NCBI RefSeq assembly: GCF_035084215.1
Contig: NC_090345.1
Coordinates: 14,322,001 to 14,386,000, forward strand
Direction of reading: 5' to 3'
Length of the DNA stretch: 64,000 bases
Source of the DNA: Heptranchias perlo
Taxonomy: Eukaryota
Under the pieces are notes generated by a model, which did not search any database, was not told the origin of the DNA, and worked only from the letters and a program-made list of their open reading frames with translations. Positions 333 to 61,557 of this stretch are shown here, piece after piece. Numbering within the stretch: position 1 is the first letter of the stretch; every line of letters begins with the position of its first letter. The position numbers and the translations under genes are program-made.

Positions 333-3300
333 GTAACTGTGTCACTGATTAATATTTTAACTGTTAGTTCATAACTAGTGCTTTAACCAATTAATGGGCC
401 CTTCAATGGTTGCTGATGTTATTTGTAATGGAATACTGTCAATAACATATCCCAGTGTCAGGAGCTCGGATCCTGATCCGTATTCAGTCCTGCCCTTCAC
501 TGGTACCCTGTCCTCCAATGCAAAGAATTCAAAATCTGCATTCCTCATTTACAAATCCATCCACGACCTTGCTTCACTCTCTCATTTCTGCAACGTCCTC
601 CAGCCCAACATCCCAGTCACACCCTCCACTCTTCCGAGTCCGGACTATTGTGCCTGCTCCCCTGTGGTGAAAGAACCCACCGTCATTGTGACTGCAATTT
701 GCAATTATTTTCCTCCCCCATTTCAAAAATCTCCTATGACCTCGTTTCACCCACTACGAACTCTTTTCCCAATTCTTACTCAATGTCCAGATCCAGCTGC
801 TTCCTTCCCAGATGAAGTGCTTTGGTACATTTTGCTACATTAAAAGTGTTATATAATTGTGAGCCTTTCTAACTGGTGCAGAGTAAATAAAAAGAACCAG
901 AGGTAACAATGTAACTATTACAGAGAAAATAGCAGTACACAGTAACTAACACTAGCTAATAACTAATATAATAACTGCGAGGCCCAGTCAGGGGCTAATG
1001 GAGAATAATATTATCCTAATTTCTTTCCGACAAGTTAAATGACAGTTATCTTTATTGTGCTTTTTGAGCAGACCCCTTGTATATATTGACCACTGGTAAC
1101 ATTTACACTGCAGTAGACGTGAACTTCTGTACTATAACTTTTATAAAGCCACAAAAGTTTTTATGCCGTTTGTGAAAAAAATGCCTTTTTTGTTTAAGGC
1201 AATTTGTATTATGGATGACATGATGTTTTTGCGCATTTGTCTACAGTGAAACAAAGATGTAATGAGCACACTGCTGGCAGCAATGTGCCTAATAAATAGC
1301 CATGATGTGGAGATGCCAGTGATGGACTGGGGTTGACAAATGTAAGGAATCTTACAACACCAGGTTATAGTCCAACTGTTTTATTTGAAAATCACAAGCT
1401 TTCGGAGGCTTTCTCCTTAGTCAGGTGAGCGAGTGTGACGAAGGAGAAAGCCTCCGAAAGCTTGTGATTTTCAAATAAAACAGTTGGACTATAACCTGGT
1501 GTTGTAAGATTCCTTACACCTAATAAATAGGGTAAGGGGTGAATCCGATTGAGCAGCATTGCTGCCCGGATCAGTGAGTGCATGTGTAAAGAGAAGCATT
1601 TTAAAAATATTTGTTCTCAGAATGTGGGCAAGGTGCATTTTTATTGCCTATCCCTGTGCCCCTGAAAAGGTGGTAGTGGGTCTTGAACCACTGCAATCCT
1701 TGTGATGATGGACCCCCACAATGGCGTTCGGTAGGGAATTCCAAGATATTGGCCCAGCAACTATGCAGGAACATCAGTATATGTCTGACTTGGAGAGGAA
1801 CCTGAAGGTGCTGTTGTGCGATGACATGGCTGTTCTTGGCCTTCTCGCTGGGAGAGGTTTCAGGTGCTGTTGAAGTAACCTTGGTGAATTGCTGCAGTGT
1901 ATTCTATGGATAGGACATACTGCAGCCACAGTGGCTTCCAACAATTGTGGTCACAGTCCTCTGTGCCTTGGTGCAATATTTGGTCGAATGCTGCCCTAAT
2001 TACTGTCACCTATCCTCTGGTAACAAAACTTTGCTAACTTCTGAGTCGTTAATAATAAGAACTGCAAGGAAAATACTTTTCTCGTAATGGGAAGAGAGTG
2101 TTCATAACAAATATTTACATCCAACAATGAAAGCTTGCAGAGAAAATAGCTTAATGGGAAAACCTATACTGGCTTTTGGTGAAATGATCCAGCTCCATAA
2201 ATAATAAATCACAGTCATAATTTTATAAATCTAATTTTGCTTGTGTTGTTTTTACTGCATTTAGTTTGATTGTTGTGTTCTGTAGTCCTTCTTTCGTAGG
2301 TTTCTTCAATGGCTGGATATCCTGGATCCCACAACATTATTAGCGTCAAATGTAAGCAGAGTTTTATGTAAACAGCCGTGTAGAATTATGAATAAGTGAA
2401 AGTGATTTTTTTTTAATGAAGGAGTTTGAATGATGTTGTAAACCAGTGACATTCATGATACAGGCATCCCAGCTTTTCGTCATCTGTGACCCTTGATTGA
2501 TCTGTTCAAAAACCACACAGCTGTAGGATGTTGCCAGGTTGGACTTCACTGATGTTCTCAGTTTCTTAAACCACCAGTGAGAGGAAGTAAAGGAAAACTC
2601 TTTGGAAACCGGACTATCCCAGCATCCGCAGAACAAGTGAAAAGACCAAAAGGCCACTCGTGGAGTCTTTAGGGCAGGCCTGTGTACTGTTACTCTATAA
2701 GGCAGCGGGTTCTGACATTTAATAGAGAGAAACTATTTCCGCTGGTTGGGGAGTCTAGGACGAGGGGATATAACCTAAAAATTAGAGCCAAGACTTTCAG
2801 TTTTGAATTGTAAACAATTTTACAACACCAAGTTATAGTCCAGCAATTTTATTTTAAATTCACAAGCTTTCGGAGGCTACCTCCTTCGTCAGGTGAACGA
2901 TGTGAAAATGAAATCCTCGAGATGAAATCGCATTTATAATTCACAGAACAATGCTTGGTGAGTACAGACAGTTTTTTCAACTGCCCGTTGCCAAGGCAAT
3001 CAGTGTGCAGACAGACAGGTGTTACCTGCCAGGTCTCACAGAATATACAGTTTTGAAGTCAGCAAACACTTCTACACACAAAGGGTGGTAGAAGTTTGGA
3101 ACTCTCTTCTGCAAACGGAAGTTGATGCTAGCTCAATTGTTCATTTTAAATTTGAGATTGATTAACAAAAATCTATCAAAGGTATTAAGGGATATGGGGC
3201 TAAGGCGGGTATATTGAGTTATGTCACAGATCAGCCATGATCTCATTGAATGGCGGAACATGGTCAAGAGGCTAAGTGGCCTATTCCTGTTCCTACATTC

Positions 3301-6300
3301 CTATTACAGCCTCCCTCAAGCACGGCACTGTGTGGTAAAAGTCAGTAACACTCTCATAGATAGGAAGAAGGCCCATGTTCTTTATAGATGGATCTAAACT
3401 CTGAGTTGAGTCACGTTCTCATTTTCTACAATTCGGTGTTTTTAAAAAAAAAAATTAGAAAGAACTTGCATTTATATAGCGCCTTTCACGACCTTAAGAT
3501 ATGCCATAGGGCTTCACAGCCCATGAAGTGCTATTAAAGTGTAGTCACTGTTGTAATGTAGGGAAACACCAGGTTGTGCACAAGGTCCCACAAACAGTAA
3601 TAAGACAAGTGACCAGATTATCTGTTTTAGTAATGGGTCAGTCATACCTTAAAGCATCAAATGTATATGAGAAAAAGAGGACATAAAAGCCAGTCACTTC
3701 TTGCTGGCTTCTTCCAATCTGGAGCTGATTAAGCACCTGACATTCTGCAAGCGCATCTCATAAAATTACCACTGAGAGGAAGTAAAGGAAAACACAAAAA
3801 AAAAGGTATGACATAAAAAAAAAAGAAGTAAAGGAAAACTCTTTGGAAACCGGACTATCCCAGCATCCGCAGAACAAGTGAAAAGACCAAAAGGCCACTC
3901 GTGGAGTCTTTAGGGCAGGCCTGTGTCCCATTACTCTATAAGGCAGCGGGTTCTGACATTTAATAGAGAGAAACCATTTCCATTGTTTGGGGAGTCTAGG
4001 ACTAGGGGATATAACCTAAAAATTAGAGCCAAGACTTTCAGTTTTGAAGTCAGCAAAAACTTCTACACACAAAGGGTGGTAGAAGTTTGGAACTCTTCCG
4101 CAAACGGCTATTAACAGCAATTAGATTTGATGGCCTTAAAGGGACAGCCCAACTCCACCATAGCAGCAGAATAATACATTTTGTGTTCTATGGTAGTTCC
4201 TGTTATAAAACAATGTATCACTTGACTTACTGTGAGCAATGTCAAGGGAGATCTGCATACATGTGAGTGCAAAATGGAAGTCACACTGATGAAAATTAAA
4301 AATGGAACTGAAGTAACATTGATTGAAGACCGAATCTGTCATGATCATTGCAGAATAATATTTTCACATCATCCACAGGAAGGTGTAGTAAAGACATTGC
4401 AAAACTCTAAGGGTATTAGTGTGTGTCTGTAAGTGAATTGCAAGACAGAAATCCAGTTGTAGGGACCTTATTTCTGTGTTGCTGCTTGAACCTATTGACA
4501 AATGACCACATCTGTCTCAGTATTGGGACATCTTGGGTGTTCCAGCCTGAGGGCCATAACCCAAAGTTGTTAGGATGACACAGTGGAAATATTACAATTC
4601 CGTTGCTCTACATATACCATTTTTTCCTTACCCAATGCAAAGGACAGCAAAGCAAGCCCACATTTCCTATGAACTGAATCATAACCTTATTCACAAAGTA
4701 TGAGGCGTCTTGCACTGTATTCATTGAGCTTATCAACAGCATACGGGATTCACCCCAGGATTGTTACCTCCAGGTAGCAGGCTTAGGGTGAACAATAAGC
4801 CCCTTATGCAGTTGAAACACTCATTGAATATAGTATGAGACTCCATATGCCCTTGACATCTTTTCCGTAGACAGTCCAAAAAAAATCATGAGCAATGCCA
4901 TGGGAAATCTGCTGGCAGTTTTATATTTTGATTTGTTACCTTCAATGGTGGGAAAAATCTGTCTTTCCGTCTTACTCCCCACGGTATGTTTACTTATGAA
5001 TATACAGGGGAGGGGTGATGAAATGAAGATGACACAGAGTGATGTTCAAATTAATGAGTGGAAGTTTGTCGGAAGTAGATATCGGATTGTTGTTTCAAAT
5101 AAAATAAAAATCTCAGAACTGTTATTAAAAAAAATCTGTGTTCATGTACTCTTCAACAGAAGGAAATACAAAATGCTCAAACTCTGCTTCAGAGCAGCCC
5201 ACCGAGTCTGACGGAGCCAGTGAAAGATGAAAAGGTAAGTCAGCCTGGCAGCAAAAATAAGTTGCTGTAAAATGTAGCCGTGTTCTCAGAGGTTTTCGTT
5301 TTATAGTTTATTTACTTCTGTAACATATTTGCCTTGTGGTCATGTGTTTAACTGCTCCATTTTGTGAAAAGTTGTTTTTAAATCATTACCTTTTTTTTTT
5401 CCCTTTCAGATTAAAAAAGCATTGAAACTTACTCTGGTGAGAAAACTTTCATGAAAGCTGGCCGAGCTTGTCAAAGGCGCACTGAGCCTCTAACAAAGAT
5501 CCTGTCTATAACTCGACCATGCTCATTGTTATCACAAGAACCTCAGTAAAAAGTTAATGGAGGGCATGTGAAAGAAAGAACGCCAACACGAGCTGGTTGG
5601 GCCGAATGGCCTGTTTCCATGATGTAATTTCTATGAACTGGCGTTTATATAGTGCCTTTCACATCCTCAGGACGTCCCCTTTACAGCCAATTACTTTTGA
5701 AGTGTAGAGGCTGATGGGTTGTAGGCAAAGGCAGCAGCCAACTTGCACAAGGCAAGGTCCCAAAAACAACAGTGAGATAAGTGATCTCTTTTTGGTAGTT
5801 TTGGTTGAGGGATAGAATGTCCACAAGCTATGAACATCAACCAGGAGTTTCACAAACCAGCTGGTGAAAGATACCAGTTAATAGGATGTGTGGAATTCAG
5901 ACCTGGGCCTACTGAACACCCCACTGCTATACTTGCTAGGAAACCAAGAGAAGATGAACTTCAAAATCAAATTGTCAACCTGGATGCTGCCACTTTGCAT
6001 CTATAATTCCCCACACTGCAACTTCCCAGTCATCACTGAATTTTGATTTGGTGGGTGGATGTCAAATGAGGATCAGGTGTTTGTTCATAAGTAATATAAT
6101 GGCAAGGTTGATAAATGTGTTTCCGTGCCCCTCCCCTCCCCTCCCCTCCCCTCCTCCACCCCCACCCTTCCCCATCTGCTGTTTCACATCTCTTAAGGGC
6201 ATCTTTTAGAACAGCATCAGCACGTGCCCAGGGGGAGGTATCTGCCTGCTCTCTGACACAAGCAATGCTGCAAAACAAGGGGAGAAGGGAACTGTTAACC

Positions 6301-9300
6301 TATTCAGTAAATTTAATCGGAAAATGGGCAACTTAGGAGAAGGGACAAAGTATGAATCCTGATAAACAAAATGAAAATGCAGTGTATGAATTTTGTGAGT
6401 TTAAAAACAGGCAATCACACAGTTCCTTTCTTTAAAAGAGACCAGCCACAACAACATTTGTCTGCCTGCTTTCTGTTTACAACAGCATTTGATATGGTGT
6501 TGATGTAGGTGAAAATCATTGTGATTTTATACATCTTGTTACTGATGCAAATCTGCCTTATAACTGATTATAGAAAATGTAATTACTTATCATTACATGT
6601 ACCGTGCAATTTGGCAAAAACTGCTCAATGATCAGTCTTCAACCCTTAGCATTTTTGCTGGTGTCCACTGGTAATGTGGTCAATGTAATGCCCATTTCTT
6701 TACCCTCTGTCTCCCTAGTCTTCGGTTCATCCAGACACTGGTGATGTGCTGCCAACAGTATTCCGTGCTTCAGGTGAGTGTTGTTCACATCATTCAGTAT
6801 TTGTTGACCTCCTTTCTTGTATTTCTTTGTTTCAGGATAAATAGTGATTTCCTGTGACATTGCTCACAGGTAGTTTGGCACACAGTTGTGATGTTTAGCT
6901 GCTAACCTGGCCTGTCCCTTTAAAGCCAAAAAGTCTAGTTGCTGTAAATAAGCATACCCAGAAGGCCAATTAGAGGCTAATTGCTGCAGAAGTTTTTCTG
7001 TAGATTGGCAACTCCTTGTAAATCCCTGGCTGCTCTCTAGGGTCAAAAGAAACCAGTACAAAATGACTGGCTTGCTTTCTCTTTTGTATAAAAAAAAATT
7101 GCATATGTGGCTAAGTGTGATTAATGCATCTCAAAACATTTAGATATAGACTATATTATAAAGTAAACATATGAAAGAATGACCATTTTTTCTTTTTCTC
7201 CCTCCTCCCTCCTCCAGCATTCACACCATTTGCTGCCCCTTTGGTAGGTACTGAAATTCCAATATGTGAATATTTAGTTGAATATTTCAATTTGCCATGA
7301 ACTCCTTTTCTCTACTTCCAAAGTAGTTTTAAGTTTACATTAGAAATTAGTTTCTGCTCATTGAATCAGAGGAGATACTGTTTATGTCAACATAACAGAA
7401 GAAGAAGGAGGCATATGACATGCATAGGCAGCTGGGATCAAGTGGATCCCTTGAAGAGTATGGAGATTGCCGGAGTAGAGTTAAGAGAGAAATCAGGAGG
7501 ACAAAAAGGGGACATGAGATTGCTTTGGCAGATAAGGCAAAGGAGAATCGAAAGAGCTTCTACAAATACATAAAGGGCAAAAGAGTAACTAGGGAGAGAG
7601 TAGGGCCTCTTAAGGATCAACAAGGTCATCTATGTGCGGAACCACAAGAGATGGGTGAGATCCTAAATGAATATTTCACATCGGCATTTACAGTTGAGAA
7701 AGGCATGGATGTTAGGGAACTTGGGGAAATAAATAGTGATGTCTTGAGTGTACATATTACAGAGAGGGAGGTGCTGGAAGTCTTAACGCGCATCAAGGTA
7801 GATAAATCTCCGGGACCTGATGAAATGTATCCCAGGACGTTATGGGAGGTTCGGGAGGAAATTGCAGGTCCCCTAGCAGAGATATTTGAATCATCGACAG
7901 CTACAGGGGAGGTGCCTGAAGATTGGAGGGTAACAAATGTTGTGCCTTTGTTTAAGAAGGGCGGCAGGGAAAAGCCTGGGAACTACAGACCGGTGAGCCT
8001 GACATCTGTAGTGGGTAAGTTGTTAGAGGGTATTCTGAGAGACAGGATCTACGGGCATTTGGAGAGGCAGGGACTGATTAGGAACAGTCAGCATGGTTTT
8101 GTGAGAGGAAAATCATGTCTCACAAATTTGATTGAGTTTTTTGAAGGGGTAACCAAGAAGATAGATGAGGGCTGTGCAGTAGACGTGGTCTACATGGACT
8201 TTAGCAAAGCCTTTGACAAGGTACCGCATGGTAGGTTGTTACATAAGGTTAAATCTCACGGGATCCAAGGTGAGGTAGCCAATTGGATACAAAATTGGAT
8301 TAACGACAGAAGACAGAGGGTGGTTGTAGAGGGTTGTTTTTCAAACTGGAAGCCTGTGACCAGCGGTGTGCCTCAGGGATCGGTGCTGGGTCCGCTGTTA
8401 TTTGTTATTTATATTAATGATTTGGATGAGAATTTAGGAGGCATGGTTAGTAAGTTTGCAGATGACACCAAGATGGAGTTTAATTTAGATAAATGTGAGG
8501 TGATGCATTTTGGTAGATCGAATCGGGCCAGGACCTACTCCGTTAATGGTAGGGCGTTGGGGAGAGTTCTAGAACAAAGAGATCTAGGAGTACAGGTTCA
8601 TAGCTCCTTGAAAGTGGAGTCACAGGTGGATAGGGTGGTGAAGAAGGCATTCAGCATGCTTGGTTTCATTGGTCAGAACATTGAATACAGGAGTTGGGAT
8701 GTCTTGTTGAAATTGTACAAGACATTAGTAAGGCCACACTTGGAATACTGTGTACAGTTCTGGCCACCCTATTATAGAAAGGATATTATTAAACTAGAAA
8801 GAGTGCAGAAAAGATTTACTAGGATGCTACTGGGACTTGATGGTTTGACTTATAGGGAGAGGTTGGATAGACTGAGACTTTATTCCATGGAGAGTTGGAG
8901 GTTTCGGGGTGATCTTATAGAAGTCTATAAAATAATGAGGGGCATAGATAAGGTAGATAGTCAAAATCTTTTCCCAAAGGTAGGGGAGTCTATAATGAGG
9001 GGGCATAGATTTAAGGTGAGAGGGGAGAGATACAAAAGGGTCCAGAGGGGCAATTTTTTCACTGAAAGGGTGGTGAGTGTCTGGAACGAGCTGCCAGAGG
9101 CAGTAGTGGAGGCGGGTACAATTTTGTCTTTTAAAAAGCATTTGGACAGTTACATGGGTAAGATGGGTATAGAGGGATATGGGCCAAGTGCAGGCAATTG
9201 GGACTAGCTTAGTGGTATAAACTGGGCGACATGGACATGTTGGGCCGAAGGGCCTGTTTCCGTGTTGTAAACTTCTATGATTCTATGATTCTAACAGCAG

Positions 9301-22232: not shown

Positions 22233-24173
22233 GGGCCGGAATTTGCTCTGAGCGGCCAACGACCGGCATCCGCTGCTCGTTAGACTTGGACTTGCCTGTA
22301 GACTTTTCATGGGCTTTTCCTCAGACCCTCAGTCCAGTGCGGCGCCCTCTCCTGGGCATCTGTGACCTGTGTGAACGGGGCAAGCTGCTGTGTATCCCCT
22401 TAACCAATCAGATTGAAGCATGTTAATAAGCGGCACAGACACAGAACCAGGATGTGTAAGTTGGAATAGTGAATACAATGTCAAATCAGTTACAGAAAGT
22501 GAAATAGAGAGAGAGGGTAAGAAATATTGAATTAAAAGACAGATAAAAGAGACAAAAGAAACAGTGAAAAAATAAAAATATTTAAAAACATTTTTTTACA
22601 TGTCCAACAACAATTAAAATGTGAAGGAATGAGACTCCACACTTGTAAAAGTGAATTTTCAGTGCCCGAGAGGTTGTTTGGCAGTCATTAAGTTACAAAT
22701 CTCCAGAGAAAGGGGGGAAAGGCGTGCCCAAAGTAGCCCTCATCCTGATGGCCACCTTTGTGTGTGGCTGCATCAAGCTGTGCGTATTCATACAATACCT
22801 CGGTACGCAAACACAAAGTGTCACTACGTGCTGAGGTTCTACCTGTCCCCCTTGTTGCGAAAGATGGGCTGGCCACGCTGCCATGGAACGCTCCATCCAG
22901 TTGGACCGTTCCGCCCCACCTGTCCGTGGAAAAGTTTGTGCAGAAAAACACCTTTGACCACAAGGCGATCAGCAAGTGGTCCGCACTTAATGTCCTCGAG
23001 ACCCTGCGGGTAAAGGAGATGGTGGATCCTGTCAGTTGTTTCCCTGAGCAGACTGTCAACATCATTTGGCAGAATGCCTCATTGCCAGAGCTATCAAACA
23101 AGCATCAAGACCTAGCTTGGCTGGTGGTGAGAAGGGCCCTTCCCGTCAGATCCTTCATGCATTCCTGGAGTCTCAGTGCCACCGCACGCTGTCCCCGAGG
23201 AGGTTGTGGTGGAGACGAGACCGTCACCCATCTCCTTCTGGAATGTGCCTTTGCAAAGAAGGTCTGGAGAGAGTGGTATCTGTCCAGGTTCATCCCGAGC
23301 AGTTCCGTAACACAGGACTCTGTGCTCTACGGGCTGTTCCCGTGGACGCACACTGAGACGGACATCAACTGCTGCTGGAAGACCATCACCTCGGTGAAAG
23401 ACGCCCTTTGGTCTGCCCGAAACCTGCTGGTCTTCCAGTGCAAGGAGCTGTCCTCGACCGAGTGTTGCAGACTGGAACATTCCAAGGTCCAGGACTACGT
23501 GCTCAGGGATGCACTGAAGCTGGGTGCGGCCACCGCAAAGGCTCTGTGGGGAAAGGCAACCATTTAGAGCCTTCCTGCCATTGTATACTGAGGGGCTGGA
23601 ATCAGGGAAAAATCCCCTCGGGCAGAATGTAAAATTCAAATTGATGTAATGTACCTGTAATGAATCTGTAATCAATAATCTGTATTGAGTGTAATGCAAT
23701 GAGGCATCCGAGAGTGTCATGAACTGTAATTATGTGCAATGTGTTCATTGAACTGCACTTGATGTAACCTGCAAATTGTATAATCTGTATTGTACATTTG
23801 GAATGTGATATGACAACTGTATTGTATGAATTGCTGCAAATTTTATGAATAAAGTATATTTTTTGGGAAAAAAAGTGTTTAAAATTTTGGTTAGACTAAA
23901 AAACTTGACGTATCTTTTTCTGTCGCGATTGCATCATTTCCATCAGGGGAGAAGAGGTACTTTGTGCTGTTGCAGTCATTTCAACGTTGAGTCAGCCGAT
24001 GAGATTTCCTTCCTGCAAAGCTTCTGGAGGAGCAGGGCATCTGGTAGAGGAACTTCCGGATTTCTGCATTTAACTGCGCAATGTGTGGTCATCAGAAGTT
24101 CCTCTACCATTTGCACTGAAATCACGGTGAGCACTGTTAGGCTCGCCTTTATTTTTAGAGCAAAATCTGGCCC
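22233..24173. mobile_element. TIR non-autonomous DNA transposon (about 760 bp) split by a Tx1 insertion; relatives at 40320-41100 and 56760-57420
   Basis: Left GGGCCGGAATTTGCTCT versus reverse complement of the right end GGGCCAGATTTTGCTCT; body (aatgagactccaca...cattaag) shared with 57050-57150. Confidence 0.75.
22697..23874 (+). mobile_element. L1/Tx1-clade LINE 3' fragment (ORF2 C-terminal zf-RVT region)
   Basis: ORF 22758-23567 with WLVVRRALPVR and CPRGGCGGDETVTHLLLEC; TGTAA-rich 3' UTR, AATAAA and short A tail. Confidence 0.9.
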
Positions 24174-26514: not shown

Positions 26515-26669
26515 TAGTTTCCAAAAAGGATGTCAATTATTTGTCAAAGGAGGTTGTCCAGTTAATGTTGAGCGATCTGTTCCATGTGTCTCAACTCAAT
26601 GTTGTAAAATCTAAATGGATTGGAAACCTATCTCCTCCCCAAAGAAAAACAAAACTGTAATCTTCAAGA

Positions 26670-26792
26670 TGTGGAGATGCCGGTGATGGACTGGGGTGGA
26701 CAAATGTAAGGAATCTTACAACACCAAGTTATAGTCCAACAGTCAAATAAAACTGTTGGACTATAACCTGATGTTGTAAGATTCCTTACATT
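26670..26792. mobile_element. Short Penelope-like fold-back element (same family as 1300-1518), hammerhead deleted
   Basis: 44-bp inverted arms at 26700-26743 and 26752-26795 (2 mismatches); direct repeat TGTAATCTTCAAGA at 26656-26669 and 26793-26806. Confidence 0.85.
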
Positions 26793-28387
26793 TGTAATCT
26801 TCAAGAATTTGATCTTGTGGTACTACAGATGTAACTCTTTATTTTTCAGTGCAGTTATGCACAGCAGATTATTATTACCGGTACCATTTATAGATATTAC
26901 AAACAGCAGAGTAATTATGGTCTATCTTCATTAATCTGGCCAAAACTGTCACCACAAAATGTGTCATTATTAAAGTGTGTTATTGTGGATGTTTATATAG
27001 ATTTGCTATCATACATCCCCACATATCATTCCCATCTATTGCCTTTTACAAGTTGATCACGACCCACGCATAATTAGTTCTTTTTGGAGTTTGTATATAT
27101 TGAATAACACTTAGGATCTATTTTCAGGGTCAGTGAATTATGTGGATAGATTTAACTTTTGGCTTCCTTGTTAAATTGTTAGATGCAAACCCTGAGGTCA
27201 TCATTTTTTTAAAACAAAAAGTAATCAAAGCCAAAAGGCTCATTACTCTCATCGAGGATTAATCAAATTAAACCGTAGAGATAGTGTTTCAATTTTAAAA
27301 ATACAATTAGAGTTGTCAGAGTGTTATGGTGGTTGGCACACTGTTCTTTCATCTCTTGGGTCTAAATTTGGATCTAGCCCAGACAAATGTGATGAAAGTC
27401 TATCTCTGTAAGTGTAAGGACTCTATCTAAGGGCTGTAGTGTCAGCCTGGCAGTGGCAACACTCTCGCCTCTGAGGCTGGGGCTCAGCCACGTTTCTGGA
27501 CAGAGTAAGAACATAAATCACAGAATAAATTTGCCATATGCTCCTGTTACATAGAATCTACTTTTATCATGGACTTGATTTATCATGGACCCATTTAAGC
27601 TGCTGAGAGGATATTTTGAATACTCTCCAATCTCCAAAACTAGTCAAACAAAACTCTCAAGATGTTTATCCATTCCCACGTCTAAGTTATTCAACAGCAT
27701 CTTGCTGCCCTCCGCAGCCAACATGCTAATGAGCCCCACTGGCAAAGAAACTACTCCCATGTAGAAGCTGGTCGTCTCAATATAAAACAATAGGCTTTAT
27801 TCGATTGTGGATTCAAAACCAGTAAAAAGGATTTGGCTCATCATCTTTCACCTTGATGAGCACAGACGTCATCCCTAATCATTTTTAAACAATTACAATC
27901 AACTGGAGCTGAAGAAGAGATGGGGCTGTGTGTCTGATCGGTGGTAGAACTGCAACACAAGCTTGGGAATAGAGCGCAAACAGGCCCAAGAATGGTTCAG
28001 AACTCCTACATCAGAGTGCGGTGAATAGAGCTACACGTTTGTGCAGGTAATTTCTTTACCGTTTTATTCCAAGGAGCATATAATAATTAATTCACCTCAG
28101 AATTCATTACATTTAAAGCAACACCATTAGAAAAGCTTACTTATCAGTCTGAGCCTGGGAGTGCAGCTCAAAATTTATTTTCCTGCAATGTGATTGGGCA
28201 GAAAAATTGGCATGGGGAGGAGGGGTGGACGGTAGAAAGAAATGTTTTGTAGAAAGTGACCAAATAGAAAGAAGAAAACTACAGCTCTAGCCAATGACGA
28301 AGGTGAAAAGACCAGGAAATCATCAGAAAAAAAACTGTCATACACTACAGTCACAATGTTCAATATGAGCACAGAATTTTACATAAG

Positions 28388-51100: not shown

Positions 51101-54100
51101 TTGTTTAAAAGTTTGCACCATGTTTGCCATATGCGGATGCTTCTAATTATTAACAGTTTGCCTGTTTAATTACAGAGTTTTTGGAGGTTGGCAAGAAACA
51201 ACCTGCTCTTGATGTATTGTACGATGTTATTAAGAGCAAAAAACATCGAACATGGCAGAAAATACACGAGCCTATTATGCTCAAATACCTAGAGCTGTGT
51301 GTGGATCTTCGCAAGAGCCACCTAGCAAAGGAAGGATTGTATCAGTACAAGAACATCTGTCAGCAGGTATATTGCATTACTAGAATGCTGTGCACCCACA
51401 TTGAATTACTATTGTTTTGTGAAGCCCATGCTGATGTAATGGGAATTGTTAATCCAGTCGCTACCAAATTTTACTTTTTGCTGATGTTGTTTCTGAAGTC
51501 AGCAGACTTAAATTCAGCAAATAGCATTTTTAGTGGCCAATTGTGTTATTCAAAAAAAGTTAATTTTATTTATATAGTCCAAAAATCTTAATCAAAATGT
51601 TTTTGTCACTCTGGTTTTAGGTTCCAGTGTTCCACTTGTTGAGGTTTTTTTCTCTGTGCCTGGTTTGTGTCTTTTTTTCTTGTAGTACACTTTTTCCATA
51701 CAAAACGGTGCTAGGAAGCCTGAGTCATGCTGCATGTACACAGGAACGTACCCACAGCTCCATTAGCTATCGGTTTTAACATGACAGGCCTGGCAGAGTC
51801 TCTTTGGAATGTATTTTTTTTAAAAACATTCATTACAGTTTAGTTACTTCAATTTACATTTAGTAAAACAGCTTTTAATGCACCAAAATATCCCAAGGTG
51901 CTTCACTTAAGGGCAGAGAAAAATGGACACCAAGCAGAAGTTGGGGGGTAAAATGAAGGTTCTAAGGAGAGATGTAACAAGGGGGAGGTCTTTTTGGAAA
52001 GTAATTCCATAGTGTTGGACTGTGGTGGCTGAAGGTTATCTGTGGTGGACCAGAATGCAATGGGTGCACGGTGGACTAGAATCAGAGGAGCAGAGGATGT
52101 GAGATGGGATGCAGGACTGCAGCAGATTAGAGGTAGGGAGGGGCAAGGCAATTAAGTAAACTTTTAGTTGAGGATTTTGAAGTCGCTGAGATTGGACACT
52201 AGTGAGGGTCTGCAAGAACAGGAGTGATAGATGAGAGATACTTAAAATAATTTTGTATGTTTGTGCAATTCTTTGGCATAAACTTGAGGTTGCATGAAGT
52301 GGAGCTGAGGAGATCAAACAGGAGTTTCAGAGAAAGCAAACTTGGTGTAACAGAGTCACGGTGAAAGTTTCAGTGGCAGTGGGGATGAGGTAGGTCCAGA
52401 GGCAGAAGCGGGCTGTTTTCCTGGTGGATGGGATATAGGGTTTAAAACTGAGCTCGGTGATATGCTGGCACCAAGGTTGCATGCTGTCTGGCTCAGCCTA
52501 AATAGTTGACTAGGAAAGGGCGGGGGGGTTGCAGGGAGGGACTGTATGTGACACACACACTTTTTAACAAAAGAAACTCTTGATCTCATTTCACCTGCCA
52601 TTTGGGTTTCTGGATTCCATAGAATTGCTCAGCTAATGTTAGCTCCTGGACCTGTCAGCAAGCATTTAATTAAAAATAACTGAACTTGGCTTCCTCTCCA
52701 ATCTTGGGTGCCTTTTGAGAAGAGCCTTAATCACAAACTTCAGTATAGGTTGGTTACTTGTGGAGGAAATGTCCATCTATGCTAATAACTACCTCTTTTA
52801 ATGGTTCACTGAAATTCAAAAGTAGCTGATTATTACAAATTTGATGGCCCAGTGGCTTCAGTCGCTCCGGTAAGAAGTCTGAACTTTTGACTCGCACTGC
52901 CCAATAGGCACTTGAAGTTAGTGTGACTGGGGCACGTAACAATAGTACTCCCTTATGACCCTGAACCGTATATTCGCACGTGTACTACTTCAATCTCTCC
53001 AAAGGTGAACCAAGCCAGCCCTTGGTACAACCAGGCTTGAACCAAATCCTTAAACTGCTTTATATCATAGTAACGTGAGTATGTAGACTGGCAGTTATGA
53101 TCGGACTCACTTAATTCAGACAGTACAACTTATCTTGATGATGCAAGGCAAACGGGGGTGGTAATAAGACAAGTAATGAAACAAAAGATGGGTCTAGAGG
53201 AGCTATAAATGGCAATAGCAGAACCATTACCAGCACCTGCTGTCTGAAAAAAATGTGAGCATTGGTTATGATCTGAAGTTATTGAAATCAGTGTTGAGTC
53301 CGGAAGGTTGTAAAGTGCCTTATCGAAAAATGGGGTGCTGTTCTTCGAGCTTTCATTGAGCTCCATTGGAACAGTGTAGGAGGCTGAGGACAGAGAGGTC
53401 AGTGTGGGAGTGGGACGGAGAATTAAAATGGCAAGTGAATGGAAGCTCAGGGTCACGCTTGTAGCCTGAACGGAGGTGTTCAGCAAAACGATCACCCAAT
53501 CGTCATTTGGTCTCCCCAATGTAGAGGAGACCACACTCTAGCCTTTTAGCCTTTGACTGCCTCGCGATGTACATTTTAAATTTAAAAAACTTGACTGCCA
53601 TTGCAGCCTTAGCCTGACCTCCCTGCATCTGTCTGGGTGCTGGTGTTTTATCTCTTGCTGTTCACAGACAGAAAGGGATGGGCTGCTACATCCCCTGACA
53701 AGTAACCAGGACCAGTAACTCACCCAACACAATGGGTGCGATCATTTATTAATTACTGAGATAAGTTAACAAGCAGCTTATTATCCACACCTACTGGAAT
53801 GTCTTATGGTGTCTTTTTTCATTTGCTTTTTACAGGTGAATATCAAGTCCTTGGAGGATGTGGTTAGGGCTTATCTTAAATTGGCTGAGGAAAAGACTGA
53901 AGCTGCTAAAGGGGAGTCTCAGCAGATGGTACTTGACATTGAGGACTTGGACAATATTCAAACTCCAGAAAGGTAGGCTGTCACCAAGCGCACAATTTAG
54001 GCTTTGCCTCCAATGTAATGTGTATTTAGAGTCTGAAAGAATTGAAATTTGTGATAATTTGCCACATGCAGATCTCTTGTGGCGTTGCTCAAGGTAAATC

Positions 54101-57100
54101 GGGTGGTATGCTGTTAACAACAGAAGTAGTTTACCATGTAGTGCATATCTATTATTAATCTGCCAAGACAAATCTCCGTTTGAATTGGCTTGTTCCTTTA
54201 AGGCCAGAAAATTTTATTACTGTAAGTAAAGACAGCCAGCCTGAGGTCATTCAGAGCTTAATTGTTTGTTGAGGGAAATTTGAATGTCCTTGTCCATTGC
54301 TGGCTTTTGCTGAGAAGTATACAGCATTTAAGACTATTTTATATATGTAACAAAGTGAAATGTCTGCACCACACTCCAATTTGTAAAGTCTCTTGATCAA
54401 ATAACAGTTAAACAGTGAATGATCCAAGGCTCTGATTAAGTAAGTTTGATTTTTTTGGCCTTAAAAATGACCTTCACTGTACCAGCAGAATAATACATTG
54501 TACATTGCATGGTATAACAGCCCACAGGTGGTTCAGTAATATATTAAAAATTGTATATCTGCTTGCACAGCTGTATTATTTTAGTACATAGTTATTTTGC
54601 CTATTAATGTTTTTGAACATATACAAAATGGTACGTCTAACACAAACCAGACATCCATTGTATCTACTGTATTGCATTGTAGTGCCACACTTTTGTTACA
54701 GATGTAAAATGACTTTAAAGTGTTGGATGCTTTTGACTGGCTGCCTGAAACTGACTAGCACATTCCAATCTTCGAAGTTCTCTGACCAAACAGTTAATCG
54801 CTGATATGTGCTTCTGTTTACTTAACAATTAGACTTTGTGGCCTTAAAGGGGCACGACTTTATCATGCCAGAATAATGCATTGTGAATTACATGATATAA
54901 CACTCTATACTTATAAAACAGTAACTTCTGACTGACCATGAGCAAATCCGCTGGCGATCTGCTAGAAAGTATGTAAAATGTACAATTTCTGCAATTTAAG
55001 GGAGTTATTTGCTTTAAAAGGAACAGTAACTAGGCTGTATGTACATGGGCAGGCACGTTAACTCATTTTCTTTTATATGATTTGGTTTCAAAATTGAGTC
55101 CCTGGGACCTTGCTTTCTGCACTTCTGGGGCTGGCAAACTGAGTGCAAAAGATGCACTGGGGGTAATTTTATCCCTGAGTGAAGATTTCCTTTTCTATTC
55201 AAGCCAGTGAGAAGTAAAATTTGGTGTGGTATAGAACAGGCAGTCGATTCGCTATCACCCATGGATAAGTTAAATTTACCCCAATGTCTCCAAATCTTTG
55301 TGTTGAATTATGGCCATGTTATTTCAGTTGTGCACTCTTAATTCAAATTGAAATCTTGCAACAACAAAGCTTCCCCTTGTAAATGAATTGAAAATTTGTT
55401 GCTTAATTTGCATTGGTTATTGACCAGTGAAATCTGCAGCTTAAATTCAAATTCAACCTGGTTGAAGCAAACCAGAGCAGCTAACCTTCCTGGGCTATCT
55501 GACCTCGTCTAGTTGGAAGCTGCAAATGAATTCCTCAAAGAATTTGCAACCGACTTGTTTCTGCATTGTGGCTCAGCTGCATCAAAAACCATCACGTGAT
55601 CAAGTACAGGTTTACGCAAGGGGACAAAAGCAACGTTGGCATAGAAAACGTCGACAACAGGGTGAATAATAAAATTCCTGAAATGTTATCCCGTTAGAAG
55701 CTTGAAGACTTCTTCAATGCTGATGAAACAGACCATTTTTTATAAGCTGCTAGGTTTAATCAACGCAAAATGCTTGGGTGAGAAAAAAAAATCTAAGCAG
55801 TGAATTACCATCATGGTTTGCGCTAGCATGACTTGAGGGAGAAAAAGAACGCTGCTGCTAATTGCGAATTTAAAAAAAACCCAATGTTTTCATGATGTTA
55901 TTACTCGGTCTGTAACCTACAGAAACAAAAAAGGATGGATAATTGGTGCTCTTTTTGTGGAGTGACTAAATCCTTTTGACCGACTGCAAGGCAGGAAAGT
56001 CACGTTTATAGGTAACTGGGGCTCACATGAAATGCCTCCATTTAAAAATAGAATGCATTGTCAACTACTTTCAGCATTATAAATTCATCCTACCATCAGA
56101 GGAAGCAGCTGTACCTGACACAGTCAAGGATCCCACACAGGCATTGATGGCCAATTCTGAAGCAGTGCACCTCTTTGAGGGCATGGATTCTGTTTTGCTG
56201 CCAGCCGTCATGAGGTTGGAATCCATGTCAATGCCGTTGAAGTCCAGATGTGTGGATTACTGACTGATGTGGAAATTGTTGATGCTGTGTGGGAGAATGC
56301 TGCTGATAGAATAAGGAAAAAGCCCAAGTGAACGGATCTAGTGAACAGAGGTAGAAGAACCAGCCCCTACTGTAGCCATGGCGTATAATTTTGTGCAGTT
56401 GCTGGCAATGTCTAAAATGACAACTAAGCCAGGTGTCCTGATGGATCTCTTCTCTGTATTATGTACTTTGCGGTCAAATGTGTTGTTGGCAGGAAGCAAA
56501 CTACAGTAAAGAGTATTTTGCAAAATGACTGAACTTTGTGTTGTTCAGCTTGTACAGCGCTCGAGTGTTGGATCACATGAATGACATTAATTGCTGTGAT
56601 GTTTTGTGCTATTTTTAGTGTTTGTTTCAATGGCCTGTAAATTGCTTCGAGTGGCGAACCACCATTGGTCGTCACTCATTAGATTTAAATGCACTCACTA
56701 AGTTACCACGTTCTTTTTGGCGGCAACTTCCTTGAACTGCGAGTTCAAGTAACATTGACATTCTTTCCCTGGCTGTGTGAGTGGTGAAAGGAGGCTAAGG
56801 CCCTTCAACCAATAAGCTTGAAGCAAGCTGCGCTGAGAACCAGGAAGTGCAGTTCATAGACAAAGAGCACAGACTAAAATCCTGGATGTGCCCGATAAGG
56901 TATTATAAAATGACATAGCGCAATAAAGAGAGGATAAGATTAAAAGACTGAGATAAAAGAGAAAGAAGGAAAAAGTAAAAGCAAAATGTTTTTTAATTTT
57001 TAATTTAAACATTTTTTAAAAAAATATCCAAGAACTCCTGAAATCAGGAGCAATGAGACTCCACATTTTTAAATTAGTCTTTAGTGCCAGTGAGGTTGTT

Positions 57101-60100
57101 TGGCCGTCATTGAGACTTACCACGCTGTCAAAACTTAGTTTAGACTTAAAAAACTGAGCGTACCCATTTTGTGACGATATTAGCTCGTTTCCAGCTGGGC
57201 AGGAGAGCACGTTGGCGCTGTTACGTTTATTCTGTTGATTGCAGCCGGCGATGTCCTTTTTAAGGCGAAGTTGTCAGATCGCCGGCGAACCAGGAAGAGC
57301 AAGTTCTGGATTTCCGCGTTTGGCTGCATGTGTGCGGTCGCCGGAACTTGCGCTTCGATTTCACCACTAATGACGGTGAGCGGAAATTGCTTTATTTTGA
57401 AAGCAATTTCCAGCCCGTTAAAATTATTTAATTTGAATTACTGGACAGTTCAATTTTTTTAAGCCAAAATTACCCAGAATTGCATGAGTAGAATATAGTA
57501 GTTTTCACAATGCATGTTAATTTGTTTTTCCTGTATTAAACGATCCGTTTTTGACAGTGTTGTAATTATATATTTTTTTAAAAGCTGGCATAACAGCAGC
57601 ATCCTTTCTGTATCATCAAATGGTATTAGAGTTGCATAGAAGCTTCTGGACTGAGTAAACTTATGGGACTGAAAAATATATTTATGGCACTTGCATTGAA
57701 TATTTATTTATTTGCAGTGTGCTGCTTAGTGCTGTTAGTGGCGAGGACACCCAAGACCGTACAGATCGGCTGCTGCTAACTCCATGGGTCAAATTTCTTT
57801 GGGAGTCCTACCGACAGTGTTTGGATCTGTTGCGTAACAACTCTAAAGTGGAGCGCCTTTATCATGACATTGCCCAACAAGGTAGGGTTTCTTCGGTGAT
57901 CTTGATTTTCTGTCTGCCCTGTTCCCATATCCCTTTATTCCCCTTTCATTTGACTACTTATCTAATTCATTCTTAAATGTTGACATGATCTCTGCTTCAA
58001 TTACTAACTCCTGTAGTGCTTGCCACAGCCTCAAAACCCACTGTATATAAAAGTTTCTCCTGATCTCTGTCCCAATTTCTTGCATTTAATGTTATGTCTA
58101 TGTTCCTTCATTCTAGATACCTCAGCCACTAGATAGTCTCTTTCTATCTACCCTGTCTAATCCCATTATAATTTTATATATCTATTCAAGTCACTTCTAA
58201 ATTTCCTGTTCAAATGCAAAAGCCCCAATTTTTCAAGTCTGTCTTCATATTTATATTTCCTCATACCAGGCAAAATCCTAGTGAATCTGCACTGTACTTC
58301 CTTGCCTCAACATGCTTCCTGTAGTGTAGAGCCCAAAACTGCAGATGGTATTCCAACTGTGTCTTGCTAAAGTTCTATATAGCTTCACCATTACATCTGG
58401 AGTTTTATATTTTACATCTGCCATAATACCCAGTATTCAATTAGCTTTTTTATGACCGTACCTGTTTGAAGTGCTGCTTTCAATGTCACGTGAACCTGAA
58501 CCACAAAATCCAGATTTTGCCAAAATGTACTACCTCATATTACTGACATTGAATTCCATCATCTTATCAATATCCCTTTACAGTCTCCTTTTAATCTTCA
58601 GAATTATTTATTATGCCTTCTGTTTTAGTATTGTCTGTAAATTTGGACACCACTTTCTCTAGCTCTATGCAAATAATTGATGCACATAGTGAACAGGAGC
58701 ACTGGGCCATCACTACCACTTCCAATCACTGAGAAACTGCCCATAACTCCTACTCTGTTTCCTCCCTTCTAACCTAAGAAGTTGTGTACCAAGAACAATA
58801 ATGCTAGAAACAAATGTGGTAGTCAACTTGTTAATTAAATCATGTCTGTGAAATGAGGACAGTGAAGTATAATCAAACTTTTGGAATTTTATTTTCCTTT
58901 GATAAACAATTTTGTTTGCTACCACTTTCAATATATCTGGTATTTTTTTTGTCTTTTTTCTTGATTCCCTGCAGCATTCCACAATTGTACGGATCCTATT
59001 AAATGCACAAGAACAAGTTTGGGGTATCCTCTCCTTGTCCTCGTTTAGGGACAACCTCATAATGTGCTGCATTTACTATTTTTGTGTTTTTTTAAAAAAA
59101 AGTAACCATTTGCTGCTGTTCTGCCATTGCTGAACTTTAATCTGTTGTATTTGGTACTGGAAGTTTTTGAAAATTACTTGTACGTCATCAAATTCCTTTG
59201 TCTTTTTTGCAGCTTTTAAGTTCTGCCTGCAGTATACCCGTAAGGCAGAATTCCGCAAGTTATGTGACAACTTGCGTATGCACTTGGGACAGATTCAGCG
59301 TCACCATAACCAAAGCACAGCTATCAATCTTAATAATCCTGAGAGCCAATCCATGCACCTGGAGACTCGACTTGTACAACTAGATAGTGCAATTAGTATG
59401 GAGCTTTGGCAGGTAACAGATGAACTTCATGAAATTCCATTGGCTTGTCCATAACGAGTTGTATGATTTTTAAAGTAAGGCATAGCTATAAACATGTTGC
59501 TTAGTGTAAAACTGTACCATTCAGGGTGATGCAAATTACACTTACTGTGTGGATCCTACAATAATAAATGGAGTCAGGCAGTGAACATCTATTAAATGAA
59601 CACACAGGATCATTTCCCACTTAATTGCTATGTCTCACATCCACGAAAAATTACAGAATGAACATACAGCTGCACAAAAAGCAAATTCTAGATAACTATG
59701 AGCGGCACTTGTAGTTGTCTTCCTAGCATTCAGGGATGGATTGATAATGGAACAAGCATCTCCGTAAAAAAATCTTATTTTGTATCTGATGTTTTGTATT
59801 GACCTGGATTAGGGTACATATGTTCTGTCATTTGTTTGTCTCGGGTCCTGGCACTTTTTTAAAAATTCGTTCACGGGATGTGGGCGTCGCTGGCAAGGCC
59901 GGCATTTATTGCCCATCCCTAAGAGGGCAATTAAGAATCAACCACATTGCTGTGGGTCTGGAGTCACATATAGGCCAGACCGGGTAAGGACGGCAGGTTT
60001 CCTTCCCTAAAGGACATTAGTGAACCAGATGGGTTTTTACGATAATCCGGTAGTTTCATGGCTATCATTACTGATACTAGTATTTTAATTCCAGATTTTT

Positions 60101-61557
60101 ATTTAATTAATTGAATTTTTAAATTCGCCAGCCGCCGTGGCGGGATTTGAACTCGTGACTCTGGATTTTAGTCCAGGCCTCTGGATTACTAGCCCAGTAA
60201 CATAACCACTACGCTACCGTACCCTTCTGAACCTCTAGGCAAACCTGGGAGAACAACATTCTAGGTATTGCTTTTTAAGTAGTCACCAGCAGAGTTTGAG
60301 AATTAGAGGTATTGCTAGATGCACTTTTTGCTGGGGGTGTTGATGTAGAGTTTCCTTCCTGACTATCCATATCACTTTTTTGGGGTAAGTGCATAGAATG
60401 CTTTACAGAACTTGGTTATTTTACTTAAAATATTTTAGGGAAATGGTTGGGACCCCTTAGAACAAGCGTAAAAGCTTACTGTACATGTAATTGCTTTACT
60501 ATGTGGCTTCAATGAGTGAAACATATCCTTGCTCTTTAGAAAGATCTTGGTTAGATAAACACTACACATTAGTTTGCTAACTGAGAAATAATTCATAATT
60601 CACTTAAGTGTGCAGGAATAGGAAGTTGTTTTGCATGGTGTTCTGTTTGTTTTGAGGTCGCAAATAAGCTTCATACTTGATTTTAAAATAATTGCAAAGC
60701 CTTTGAATGCAGCCAGTTTATACAAACTCCTGTGCTGGTGAGTAAAGTGTGTGGTCAGTATTATACCAGTTGATCTTGTAGTCATTGTGCACTCTGGTGT
60801 TGGCTGTACCTGGAAGCTCTGTAATGATAAAATGTCTAGATTATAACTTTTAAAAAGCCAGTCAACACTCCAACCAAACTGCTGCAGGTAAGAGATCTAA
60901 AAGGACATCCAGACCAGAAAACTGCTGACAAATGTTGCAGTTTTCTTGATCGGCCATGTCTGTTGAAACCAATTGCAATGTCCATTTAAAATAGATTTAA
61001 CATTAGCTTATTGGCTTTGGTTTGCAGAATTTGTCAGCTGTATGGGCATCCATAATAAATGGAACCGATTTTAGTGCTTACTTCCCTTTCCAACAGTAGG
61101 ATGGATCCCGAGTGAAATTGTCAAACTTGCCTAATAGGGAGGAAGATCAAGTATAGTGTTGGTTTAGATGTGGACTAGAATGGTATCTCCTAATTGAATC
61201 CAGTGTTTTATTTTTAACTATCAAGCATCTGTATTCATCTTGAAAATATTACAACTGTGTGGGAAATAAAACTTTCATAGTCTACGAAGTTATGGATTAA
61301 TGGGGATTCTGGTACAGTTTTTGTTTCTAAAGCATGTTTATTTTATAGGAAGCTTTCAAAGCAGTTGAAGACATTCATGGACTGTTCTCTTTGTCCAAGA
61401 AGCCTCCCAAGCCCCAGCTGATGGCTAACTACTATAATAAAGTTTCCACAGTATTCTGGAAATCAGGAAACGCTCTGTTTCATGCATCCACTCTTCACCG
61501 ACTGTACCACTTATCCAGAGAGATGAGAAAGAATCTTTCACCAGAGGAGATGCAGAG
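44913..61557 (+). CDS. EIF3A: Eukaryotic translation initiation factor 3 subunit A, exons 1-6 (gene continues beyond the window)
   Basis: join(44913-44961,51176-51366,53836-53972,57718-57881,59213-59412,61349-61557); [45 protein letters not shown]... is the eIF3a N-terminus. Confidence 0.98.
46005..47232 (+). mobile_element. Degenerate CR1 LINE (RT to 3' UTR)
   Basis: [31 protein letters not shown] and KGDLIEVFK fragments with stops and frameshifts; tail cctgttcctatg. Confidence 0.88.
48025..50780 (-). mobile_element. Degenerate, nearly full-length L2 LINE (APE + RT)
   Basis: [17 protein letters not shown] near 50480-50580; [36 protein letters not shown] and YADN; L2 tail near 48030. Confidence 0.88.
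49806..49976. mobile_element. Penelope-like fold-back element (second family) nested in L2, 14-bp TSD
   Basis: Inverted CAGAAAATGCTGGAAACACTCAGC / GCTGAGTGTTTCCAGCATTTTCTG plus a one-sided tail; ACAGTTGTAAATGA at 49792-49805 and 49977-49990. Confidence 0.82.
51176..51366 (+). CDS. EIF3A: EIF3A exon 2
   Basis: [14 protein letters not shown]...YKNICQQ, 191 nt. Confidence 0.97.
51860..52540 (-). mobile_element. Highly decayed L2 3' fragment
   Basis: Reverse similarity to 16990-17750. Confidence 0.65.
53127..53536 (-). mobile_element. Penelope-like element fragment: GIY-YIG endonuclease pseudo-ORF and 3' UTR
   Basis: Minus strand translates [22 protein letters not shown]...HFNSPSHS...[27 protein letters not shown]. 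Confidence 0.88.
53836..53972 (+). CDS. EIF3A: EIF3A exon 3
   Basis: [46 protein letters not shown], 137 nt. Confidence 0.97.
55330..56520 (+). mobile_element. Decayed pogo/Tigger DDE transposase relic
   Basis: FNADET at 55713-55730, followed by FYKLL and [15 protein letters not shown]; many stops. Confidence 0.75.
56760..57420. mobile_element. Non-autonomous DNA transposon related to 22233-24173
   Basis: Shared body; end gcaatttccagccc. Confidence 0.65.
57718..57881 (+). CDS. EIF3A: EIF3A exon 4
   Basis: [31 protein letters not shown]...DIAQQ, 164 nt. Confidence 0.97.
57940..58850 (-). mobile_element. Ancient CR1 fragment
   Basis: Reverse complement contains ttggaataccatctgcagttttgg (LEY..QFW-like) and other CR1 ORF2-end remnants. 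Confidence 0.6.
59213..59412 (+). CDS. EIF3A: EIF3A exon 5
   Basis: [22 protein letters not shown]...SMELWQ, 200 nt. Confidence 0.97.
59865..60224 (-). mobile_element. Young tRNA-headed SINE sharing its 3' tail with the LINE at 62828-64000
   Basis: Head GGGTACGGTAGCGTAGTGG (A box) ... GAGTTCAAATCC (B box); tail gggatgggcaataaatgccggccttgccagcgacgcccacatccc. Confidence 0.88.
61349..61557 (+). CDS. EIF3A: EIF3A exon 6
   Basis: [29 protein letters not shown]...EEMQR, 209 nt. Confidence 0.97.

Follow-up and report, generated by a model that had tools for sequence, protein, structure and literature searches.

Host gene and insertion site

The window analysed here, a 64-kb stretch of DNA, opens with a GC-rich tandem repeat of ~32-bp units (1-203), which lies just upstream of the predicted first exon of a sideroflexin gene. 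Five exon translations matched the Pfam sideroflexin family PF03820, two of them at E<1e-4 and three weakly. Judging from exon likeness and from the eIF3a exons downstream (51154-61669, plus strand), the host paralogue is presumably SFXN4; by the likeness of its repeats, the genome is probably that of a cartilaginous fish. The predicted exons at 294-332, 2286-2351 and 5160-5234, together with the PF03820 matches, support the antisense position in sideroflexin intron 2 that the initial annotation had given to the focal unit, a short insert whose features are listed in Table 1.

The insert is 240 bp long and flanked on both sides by the 10-mer CAGTTTTGAA. The 10-bp target-site duplication (TSD) claimed for it proved to be genuine, since comparison of the window with itself revealed, at a distance of ~1.2 kb, an insert-free duplicate of both flanks carrying the 10-mer only once (4039-4048); chance 10-mer flanks were rejected on the same ground. 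The filled and the empty flanks were identical at 273 of 283 aligned bases, a divergence of 3.5%. The target was an older high-copy LINE fragment, which we take to be CR1-like, and both LINE sides of the insert aligned to the C-terminus of a LINE RT protein encoded elsewhere in the window. The LINE frame is open across the empty site and split by the insert at the filled one. The near-identical empty duplicate and the LINE frame intact within it indicate that the insertion is young and the empty state ancestral. Precise excision, a possible way of creating the "empty" copy, was rejected because the LINE frame marks the empty state as ancestral. The local duplication in intron 2 spans ~280 bp (2584-3118 versus 3825-4107) and comprises unique sequence and the LINE end; its second duplicate is preceded by a short repeat of its own start and two A runs (3769-3825). 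In four public sequencing runs the LINE flanks were high-copy, and all joints among the 15 of 27 listed skipped the insert, which reflects other LINE copies; no run covered 2600-2713, i.e., the unique flank or orthologous site.

Table 1. Positions of the focal unit, its parts, its surroundings and the related copies in the window
Feature	Position	Strand	Basis or remark
Copy 2: tailed arm (minus) and inverted tail-less arm (plus)	1300..1518		12-bp TSD
Older high-copy LINE 3' ORF fragment, left of insert	2722..2807	+	frame and alignment
TSD, left copy, 10 bp	2798..2807	+	direct sequence match
Focal unit: 5'-truncated, tail-less insertion, probably a 3' pseudo-LTR of a Neptune-type Penelope-like element	2808..3047	-	family and relative comparison
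3' module ending at the short (tail-less) end	2808..2845	-	includes GGAC, 5' arm of a predicted helix with the tail, without its partner
AATAAA with downstream G/T-rich tract	2848..2853	-	motif scan; also in copy 2, the right arm of copy 3 and L002
Minimal type I hammerhead, 39 nt	2859..2897	-	stems I and II of 5 bp each, bulged A, AGCU palindrome, U17
Initiator-like YYANWYY, predicted start 2909	2905..2911	-	motif scan
TATAWAWR match (TATAAA at 2938-2933)	2931..2938	-	29 nt before the initiator-like A
Candidate X-box-like palindrome, matching RTNRCC N1-3 RGYAAC perfectly on the minus strand	2987..3000		motif scan
Imperfect palindrome near the 5' boundary, with GGTAAC half-site at 3026	3011..3036	-	fold z=-3.2, not equalled in 200 shuffles
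TSD, right copy, 10 bp	3048..3057	+	direct sequence match
Same LINE fragment, right of insert	3058..3165	+	frame and alignment
Empty duplicate of both flanks	3825..4107	+	window self-comparison
Copy 3: tailed arm and inverted tail-less arm, no hammerhead left	26668..26795		14-bp TSD

Sister copies and a coding relative

Two further copies of the family are present in the window. Both are head-to-head pairs, in which one arm stops at a small hairpin and the other continues 37-41 nt past it. The three short ends, i.e., that of the focal unit and those of the right arms of copies 2 and 3, agree within ~3 nt when microhomology is allowed for. Over their common part, the focal unit and copy 2 are identical at 79 of 92 positions; the longer arm of copy 2 begins near the equivalent of position 2903, and both of its hammerheads are damaged (a change of G8; loss of the 5' part). 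The upstream part of the focal unit occurred only once in the window, and between its TSDs the focal unit is single, not tandem. Copy 2 lies in intron 1, where the AATAAA and G/T tract of its plus-strand arm run in the host sense and form a possible cryptic poly(A) site.

Comparisons with published elements, here and below, refer to the available portions of the cited texts. An inverted copy together with a 30-40 bp tail is a Penelope-like layout (PMC8557442, PMC3846280), and an optional tail of 30-40 bp has been described along with two RT start sites (PMC11167929). Copies 2 and 3 were assigned to the Penelope layout because their inverted arm and ~40-nt tail match this published arrangement.

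A looser hammerhead pattern recovered two metagenome contigs of one family, L001 and L002, which are 99.6% identical over 677 bp and count as one relative; family-specific DNA patterns found no match in viral contigs, genome contigs or the first metagenome scan. L002 is 68.6% identical to the focal unit over 159 columns, ending at a common TTTACAA that is followed by 44 nt up to an ATG at the contig end. As L002 had been picked by its hammerhead core, the flanks were tested apart from the hammerhead: the likeness outside the search pattern was reached by 1 of 2000 shuffles downstream and by 17 of 2000 upstream. Further upstream, the same strand of L002 codes for a GIY-YIG domain (Atlas score 0.97; no match in Pfam), and the module is thereby linked in sense orientation with the 3' end of a Penelope-like ORF. 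The GIY-YIG frame of L002 (47%) and an RT fragment of L001 (49%) align to one and the same RT-plus-GIY-YIG protein, P0005, and the RT fragment did not match the LINE RT of the window. A CX2-5CxxC linker occurs in the L002 frame 48-581 and in P0005. Placed before GIY-YIG, such a linker marks Neptune/Nematis (PMC3846280, PMC8557442) and would place the element in one or the other of these two clades. Moreover, L001 and L002 show the same type of head-to-head inverted junction as copies 2 and 3. The link to Penelope-like elements (PLEs) runs through one relative and not through the exact focal family: 150 of the 151 long window frames were scanned and gave no GIY-YIG family match, and no full-length focal-family element was found among them.

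The tailed copies are predicted to form a helix between the GGAC following AATAAA and a GUCC in the tail, with the short end located in its loop. One compensatory pair in this helix separates the window copies from L002 (three sequences, two of them near-identical). The tails of copy 2 (1300-1340, minus strand) and of L002 (1427-1470) both end in ATG, which in L002 is that of the contig end and in copy 2 has A at -3 and G at +4. These tail-end ATGs suggest that the long RT start site may coincide with the ORF start codon in this clade.

Hammerhead and promoter-like signals

All four motif positions in the initial annotation (X-box, TATA, hammerhead and AATAAA) were correct, as was the numbering of its predicted cut after CUU, between 2864 and 2863. 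CUU is probably a slow triplet, which was not used as evidence. The focal hammerhead has the core CUGANGA / GAAA / UH, stems I and II, the palindromic 15.2-16.2 positions and the bulge after A9; of the canonical features, a stem III beyond the AGCU palindrome is absent. Our own descriptor of minimal type I hammerheads found one site in the 64-kb window, the focal one, and none in 100 dinucleotide shuffles. Rfam reported no hammerhead in the window at the gathering score or at E<=10, its sole match at E<=10 being a snoRNA (E 7.4), which was taken as chance. The hammerhead search that had been proposed for this site was therefore positive with the descriptor and negative with Rfam, the latter probably reflecting the absent stem III.

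The 240-mer folded with z = -3.2, and stems I and II appeared in both the minimum-energy and the centroid structures. In the predicted transcript, stem II had a pairing probability of 0.97-1.0 and stem I of only 0.33. Co-folding two 41-mers yielded an intermolecular alternative instead of the AGCU dimer, in an energy model unsuited to judging the active form. The extended palindrome AAGCUU might also allow intermolecular pairing of A14 and U17, in competition with the active core. Relative to the focal hammerhead, L002 has one stem II pair changed from G-C to C-G and H17 changed from U to A; this single compensatory pair among three sequences is not significant (164 of 500 shuffles). "Intact" is used here of the sequence of the hammerhead and not of its activity.

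The focal hammerhead resembles the minimal hammerheads of PMC4209133 in the extra nucleotide between 9 and 10.1, the G10.1-C11.1 pair, the palindromic 15.2-16.2, the 5-bp stem I and the conserved core. It differs in stem II, which has 5 bp as opposed to the 7-8 bp of the schistosome families. In the same work, a single minimal hammerhead did not cleave and dimers cleaved little. The anole hammerhead cleaves only with protein, insertion in vitro can proceed without it, and no RNA reads end at its site (PMC11167929); in frogs, one of nine dimers cleaved (bioRxiv 10.64898/2026.07.22.740005). The available text of PMC4209133 and two of its supplements name no shark, and a literature search for shark Penelope hammerheads found none; the supplements of the 2026 preprint, which lay outside its scope, may list such a chondrichthyan family.

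Upstream of the hammerhead, the X-box-like palindrome GTTGCCAAGGCAAT is the only match to RTNRCC N1-3 RGYAAC in the window, where shuffled sequences gave 1.2 matches per 64 kb, equal to 0.0026 per 140 bp in this post-hoc estimate. It is situated 78-91 nt upstream of the predicted start, which was deduced from the spacing between the TATAWAWR match TATAAATG and the initiator-like motif; a second initiator-like match has its A at 2903. In shuffles, TATA and initiator at this spacing are expected 0.003 times per 240 nt, the real window having ~4 times the shuffled rate, and a loose X-box..TATA..initiator string 0.0003 times per 240 nt. By itself, AATAAA carries little weight, with 0.14 occurrences expected per 240 nt; with the downstream G/T-rich tract, the expectation is 0.008. 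Since it lies only 57 nt past the predicted start, AATAAA is more likely to terminate RNA reading through from an upstream ORF than the unit's own transcript. Two strong hairpins are present upstream of the predicted start on the minus strand (2962-2986 and 3011-3036, z ~-3.2 each) and could be either DNA palindromes or 3' UTR structure of read-through RNA.

The strictest X-box consensus was taken from PMC2375033, according to which the presence of the loose consensus alone does not predict RFX control. The case for RFX drive would consist of one motif match, and the one coding relative is without an X-box. L002 has an initiator-like match at the aligned place, but neither a TATA consensus nor an X-box there; it may be too diverged for this to bear on conservation of the X-box. 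At 1260-1267 and 1102-1109, where the focal family has its X-box, L002 carries what we take to be a perfect CRE-like palindrome and an ETS-like site. Promoter turnover among pseudo-LTRs (pLTRs) is a possible reading of this difference. The focal copy has a strict X-box match, and none was found reported for PLEs in the literature searched, nor was any paper found there that links Penelope with RFX or the X-box.

Variation was inspected in public runs, the data being contigs only, without starts, ends or strand. In run X1, 2921 contigs aligned at 80% likeness; X1 represents another organism or is without unique-flank cover, and its RNA status is a guess. The only substitution listed inside the hammerhead in X1 affected N7, a free core position, at 43% of depth. 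Three other organisms had indels at the stem II tip, with only 2809-2903 of the unit covered, and in X5, X6 and X10 positions 2904-3036 were without cover. No variant at or above 5% was listed in the X-box or TATA in X1. This invariance offers no contrast, because 141 of the 144 upstream positions were also free of listed variants. The summed contig depth in X1, which is not a copy number, fell from 278-395k (2809-2865) to 16-32k (2904-3017). The drop fits 5' truncation, and subfamilies with other upstream sequence could also produce it at 2903. Likewise, loose ends clustered at 2894-2897 in three runs (among the 24 of 334 rows listed), which fits either many copies starting at the upstream edge of the hammerhead or subfamilies with a different upstream sequence. 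Among the 15 of 27 contig joints listed, none led from the unit end back to the unit start.

Nature and possible mechanism of the insertion

The best explanation, to which we give a probability of about 85%, is that the focal unit is a TSD-flanked 3' pLTR of a Neptune-type PLE, likely inserted by TPRT from the short, tail-less site, stopped after 240 nt, and likely inert now. The identification as a 3' pLTR follows from the TSD and its empty site, from the PLE layout of the two sister copies and from the relative's GIY-YIG with its Neptune-type linker. It bears out the initial annotation in its view of a solo Penelope-like pLTR with a minimal type I hammerhead, for which the TSD, the family layout and the relative agree; the likeness to PLE pLTRs, whose absence would have spoken against that view, is present in L002 and in the tail-and-inversion layout. 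The same annotation's retrozyme-like, mobile and self-cleaving unit was not supported, as the unit is a monomer whose hammerhead is minimal and whose sequence stops short of both the tail and the 3' helix arm.

Among known systems, the closest are the pLTRs of EN+ PLEs of the Neptune/Nematis type (PMC3846280, PMC8557442), with which the focal unit shares a length of ~200-240 bp, TATA plus initiator, a palindrome near the 5' end and existence as a solo pLTR; the optional 30-40 bp tail and the inverted 5'-truncated partner recur in its sister copies, and the linker before GIY-YIG in its coding relative. PMC3846280 describes 218-bp pLTRs that have TATA, an initiator and 5' palindromes, and also solo pLTRs; TSDs measure 8-10 bp there, compared with 10-14 bp here. 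Unlike its sister copies, the focal copy is a simple, tail-less single arm. Its TATA also sets it apart from the TATA-less internal promoter of Penelope in D. virilis (PMC2377424). Poseidon from Anolis carolinensis (Frangieh et al., 2024, PMC11167929) is similar in that its hammerhead precedes two RT start sites, one on either side of the tail. It initiates in an AC-rich stem-loop, and here the tail is predicted to close a helix whose loop would hold the short end. Poseidon belongs to a different clade, the focal family being known from sequence alone. The ORF start differs as well: with the tails of copy 2 and L002 ending in ATG, the ORF start here seems to lie past the tail, as opposed to inside the hammerhead in the anole element.

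If the element occurs in tandem, the focal stretch would act like an LTR, in the way that, in tandem Penelope copies, the downstream unit is transcribed from the upstream unit's pLTR (PMC2377424, PMC6765202). From its upstream part, with the palindromes, X-box-like site, TATA and initiator, transcription of the next unit would begin ~12 nt ahead of the hammerhead. Counted from the predicted start at 2909, the cut would fall at +46, AATAAA at +57 and the short end at +102. RNA coming in from the upstream ORF would end at the AATAAA, and cleavage by the hammerhead would require either a dimer or the assistance of protein. The template of the focal copy was probably a read-through RNA, given that the copy includes ~140 nt upstream of the predicted start; a circle or strand transfer would also be compatible. 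The solo copy may retain weak antisense promoter activity within the sideroflexin intron. Its transcripts would have neither the tail nor the helix arm surrounding the initiation site and would probably not be reverse-transcribed again, because the 3' arm is absent here and the minimal active anole template extends beyond the start sites (PMC11167929). The focal copy is therefore probably not re-mobilisable. The undamaged hammerhead core, TATA and X-box fit a young copy, and a functional one also.

A more specific proposal extends the pLTR reading: an RFX-dependent TATA promoter in a Neptune-type pLTR, combined with a helix between the post-AATAAA stretch and the tail that sets the short RT start, would leave tail-less copies promoter-competent and immobile. 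We consider it rather unlikely in this full form. If it were true, RFX would be the first named host factor targeting a PLE to germ or ciliated cells, and RFX drive of the promoter, if borne out, would account for the access of such elements to the host germ line. As a known kind of element, the focal unit matters little. It does provide a clean worked example, with the insertion proven by a local empty site and both Penelope end types side by side, along with two mechanistic leads: a helix predicted in two distant families to close over the short RT start site, and a spacing of TATA and initiator that places the RNA start just before the hammerhead.

It is very unlikely that the solo unit is instead a small RFX-driven transcription unit whose RNA self-cleaves and is circularised or re-copied like a retrozyme. 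The X-box, the TATA at -29 to the initiator, the intact core and the AATAAA with its G/T tract do stand in the order that such a unit would have, and the promoter-like string is rare in shuffles, but the relative is without X-box and TATA consensus, and the invariance of both motifs in X1 lacks contrast. Stem II is firmly predicted in the transcript, stem I is poorly paired. A unit-length circle needs two cuts and the unit has one hammerhead only, of a kind that does not cleave alone (PMC4209133) or, in the anole, is protein-dependent and dispensable (PMC11167929). Active retrozymes have moreover been defined as at least two units (bioRxiv 10.64898/2026.07.22.740005), and the tail and helix arm are missing here.

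Slightly less credible again is a PLE-derived family without autonomy of its own (SINE-like or retrozyme), of which the unit would be one monomer, with masters in the form of ~240-bp tandem arrays elsewhere in the genome. The focal unit is like metazoan non-LTR retrozymes in size, low GC, type I hammerhead, long TSD and pLTR descent (PMC7229834; bioRxiv 10.64898/2026.07.22.740005), its length falling in the 150-450 bp range of animal retrozyme units (PMC7229834). The 2026 preprint derives retrozymes from pLTRs, reports them from the one chondrichthyan sampled and describes the dispersed monomers they leave, and the adjoining palindrome at the 5' end occurs at some pLTR boundaries too (PMC3846280). 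Against this, the retrozymes of PMC7229834 have canonical hammerheads and PLEs minimal ones, no end-to-start joint was seen among the 15 of 27 listed, and the other two copies in the window have the tail-and-inversion ends of PLEs. By the features tested, the focal unit belongs with Neptune/Nematis-type pLTRs and fails two retrozyme features, being neither tandem nor equipped with a canonical hammerhead, which has a stem III and a loop 1-loop 2 contact.

Next to no credence is given to host co-option of the insertion as an antisense promoter or enhancer tuning the sideroflexin gene: Penelope pLTRs can drive neighbouring transcription (PMC2377424) and the promoter motifs are intact here, but the site is young by its divergence from the empty duplicate, nothing shows its conservation, and the hammerhead and AATAAA both face away from the host RNA and thus cannot act on it directly.

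Apart from the Penelope-like copies, the window holds three translated RT-bearing frames that are presumably LINE-type. The frame at 7396-9204 (+), located in a sideroflexin intron, is stop-free over 603 codons and represents a fairly young LINE copy with an apparent in-frame deletion after the catalytic motif of its RT. A 272-codon frame at 22749-23564 (+) carries a zf-RVT domain and belongs to another non-LTR element.
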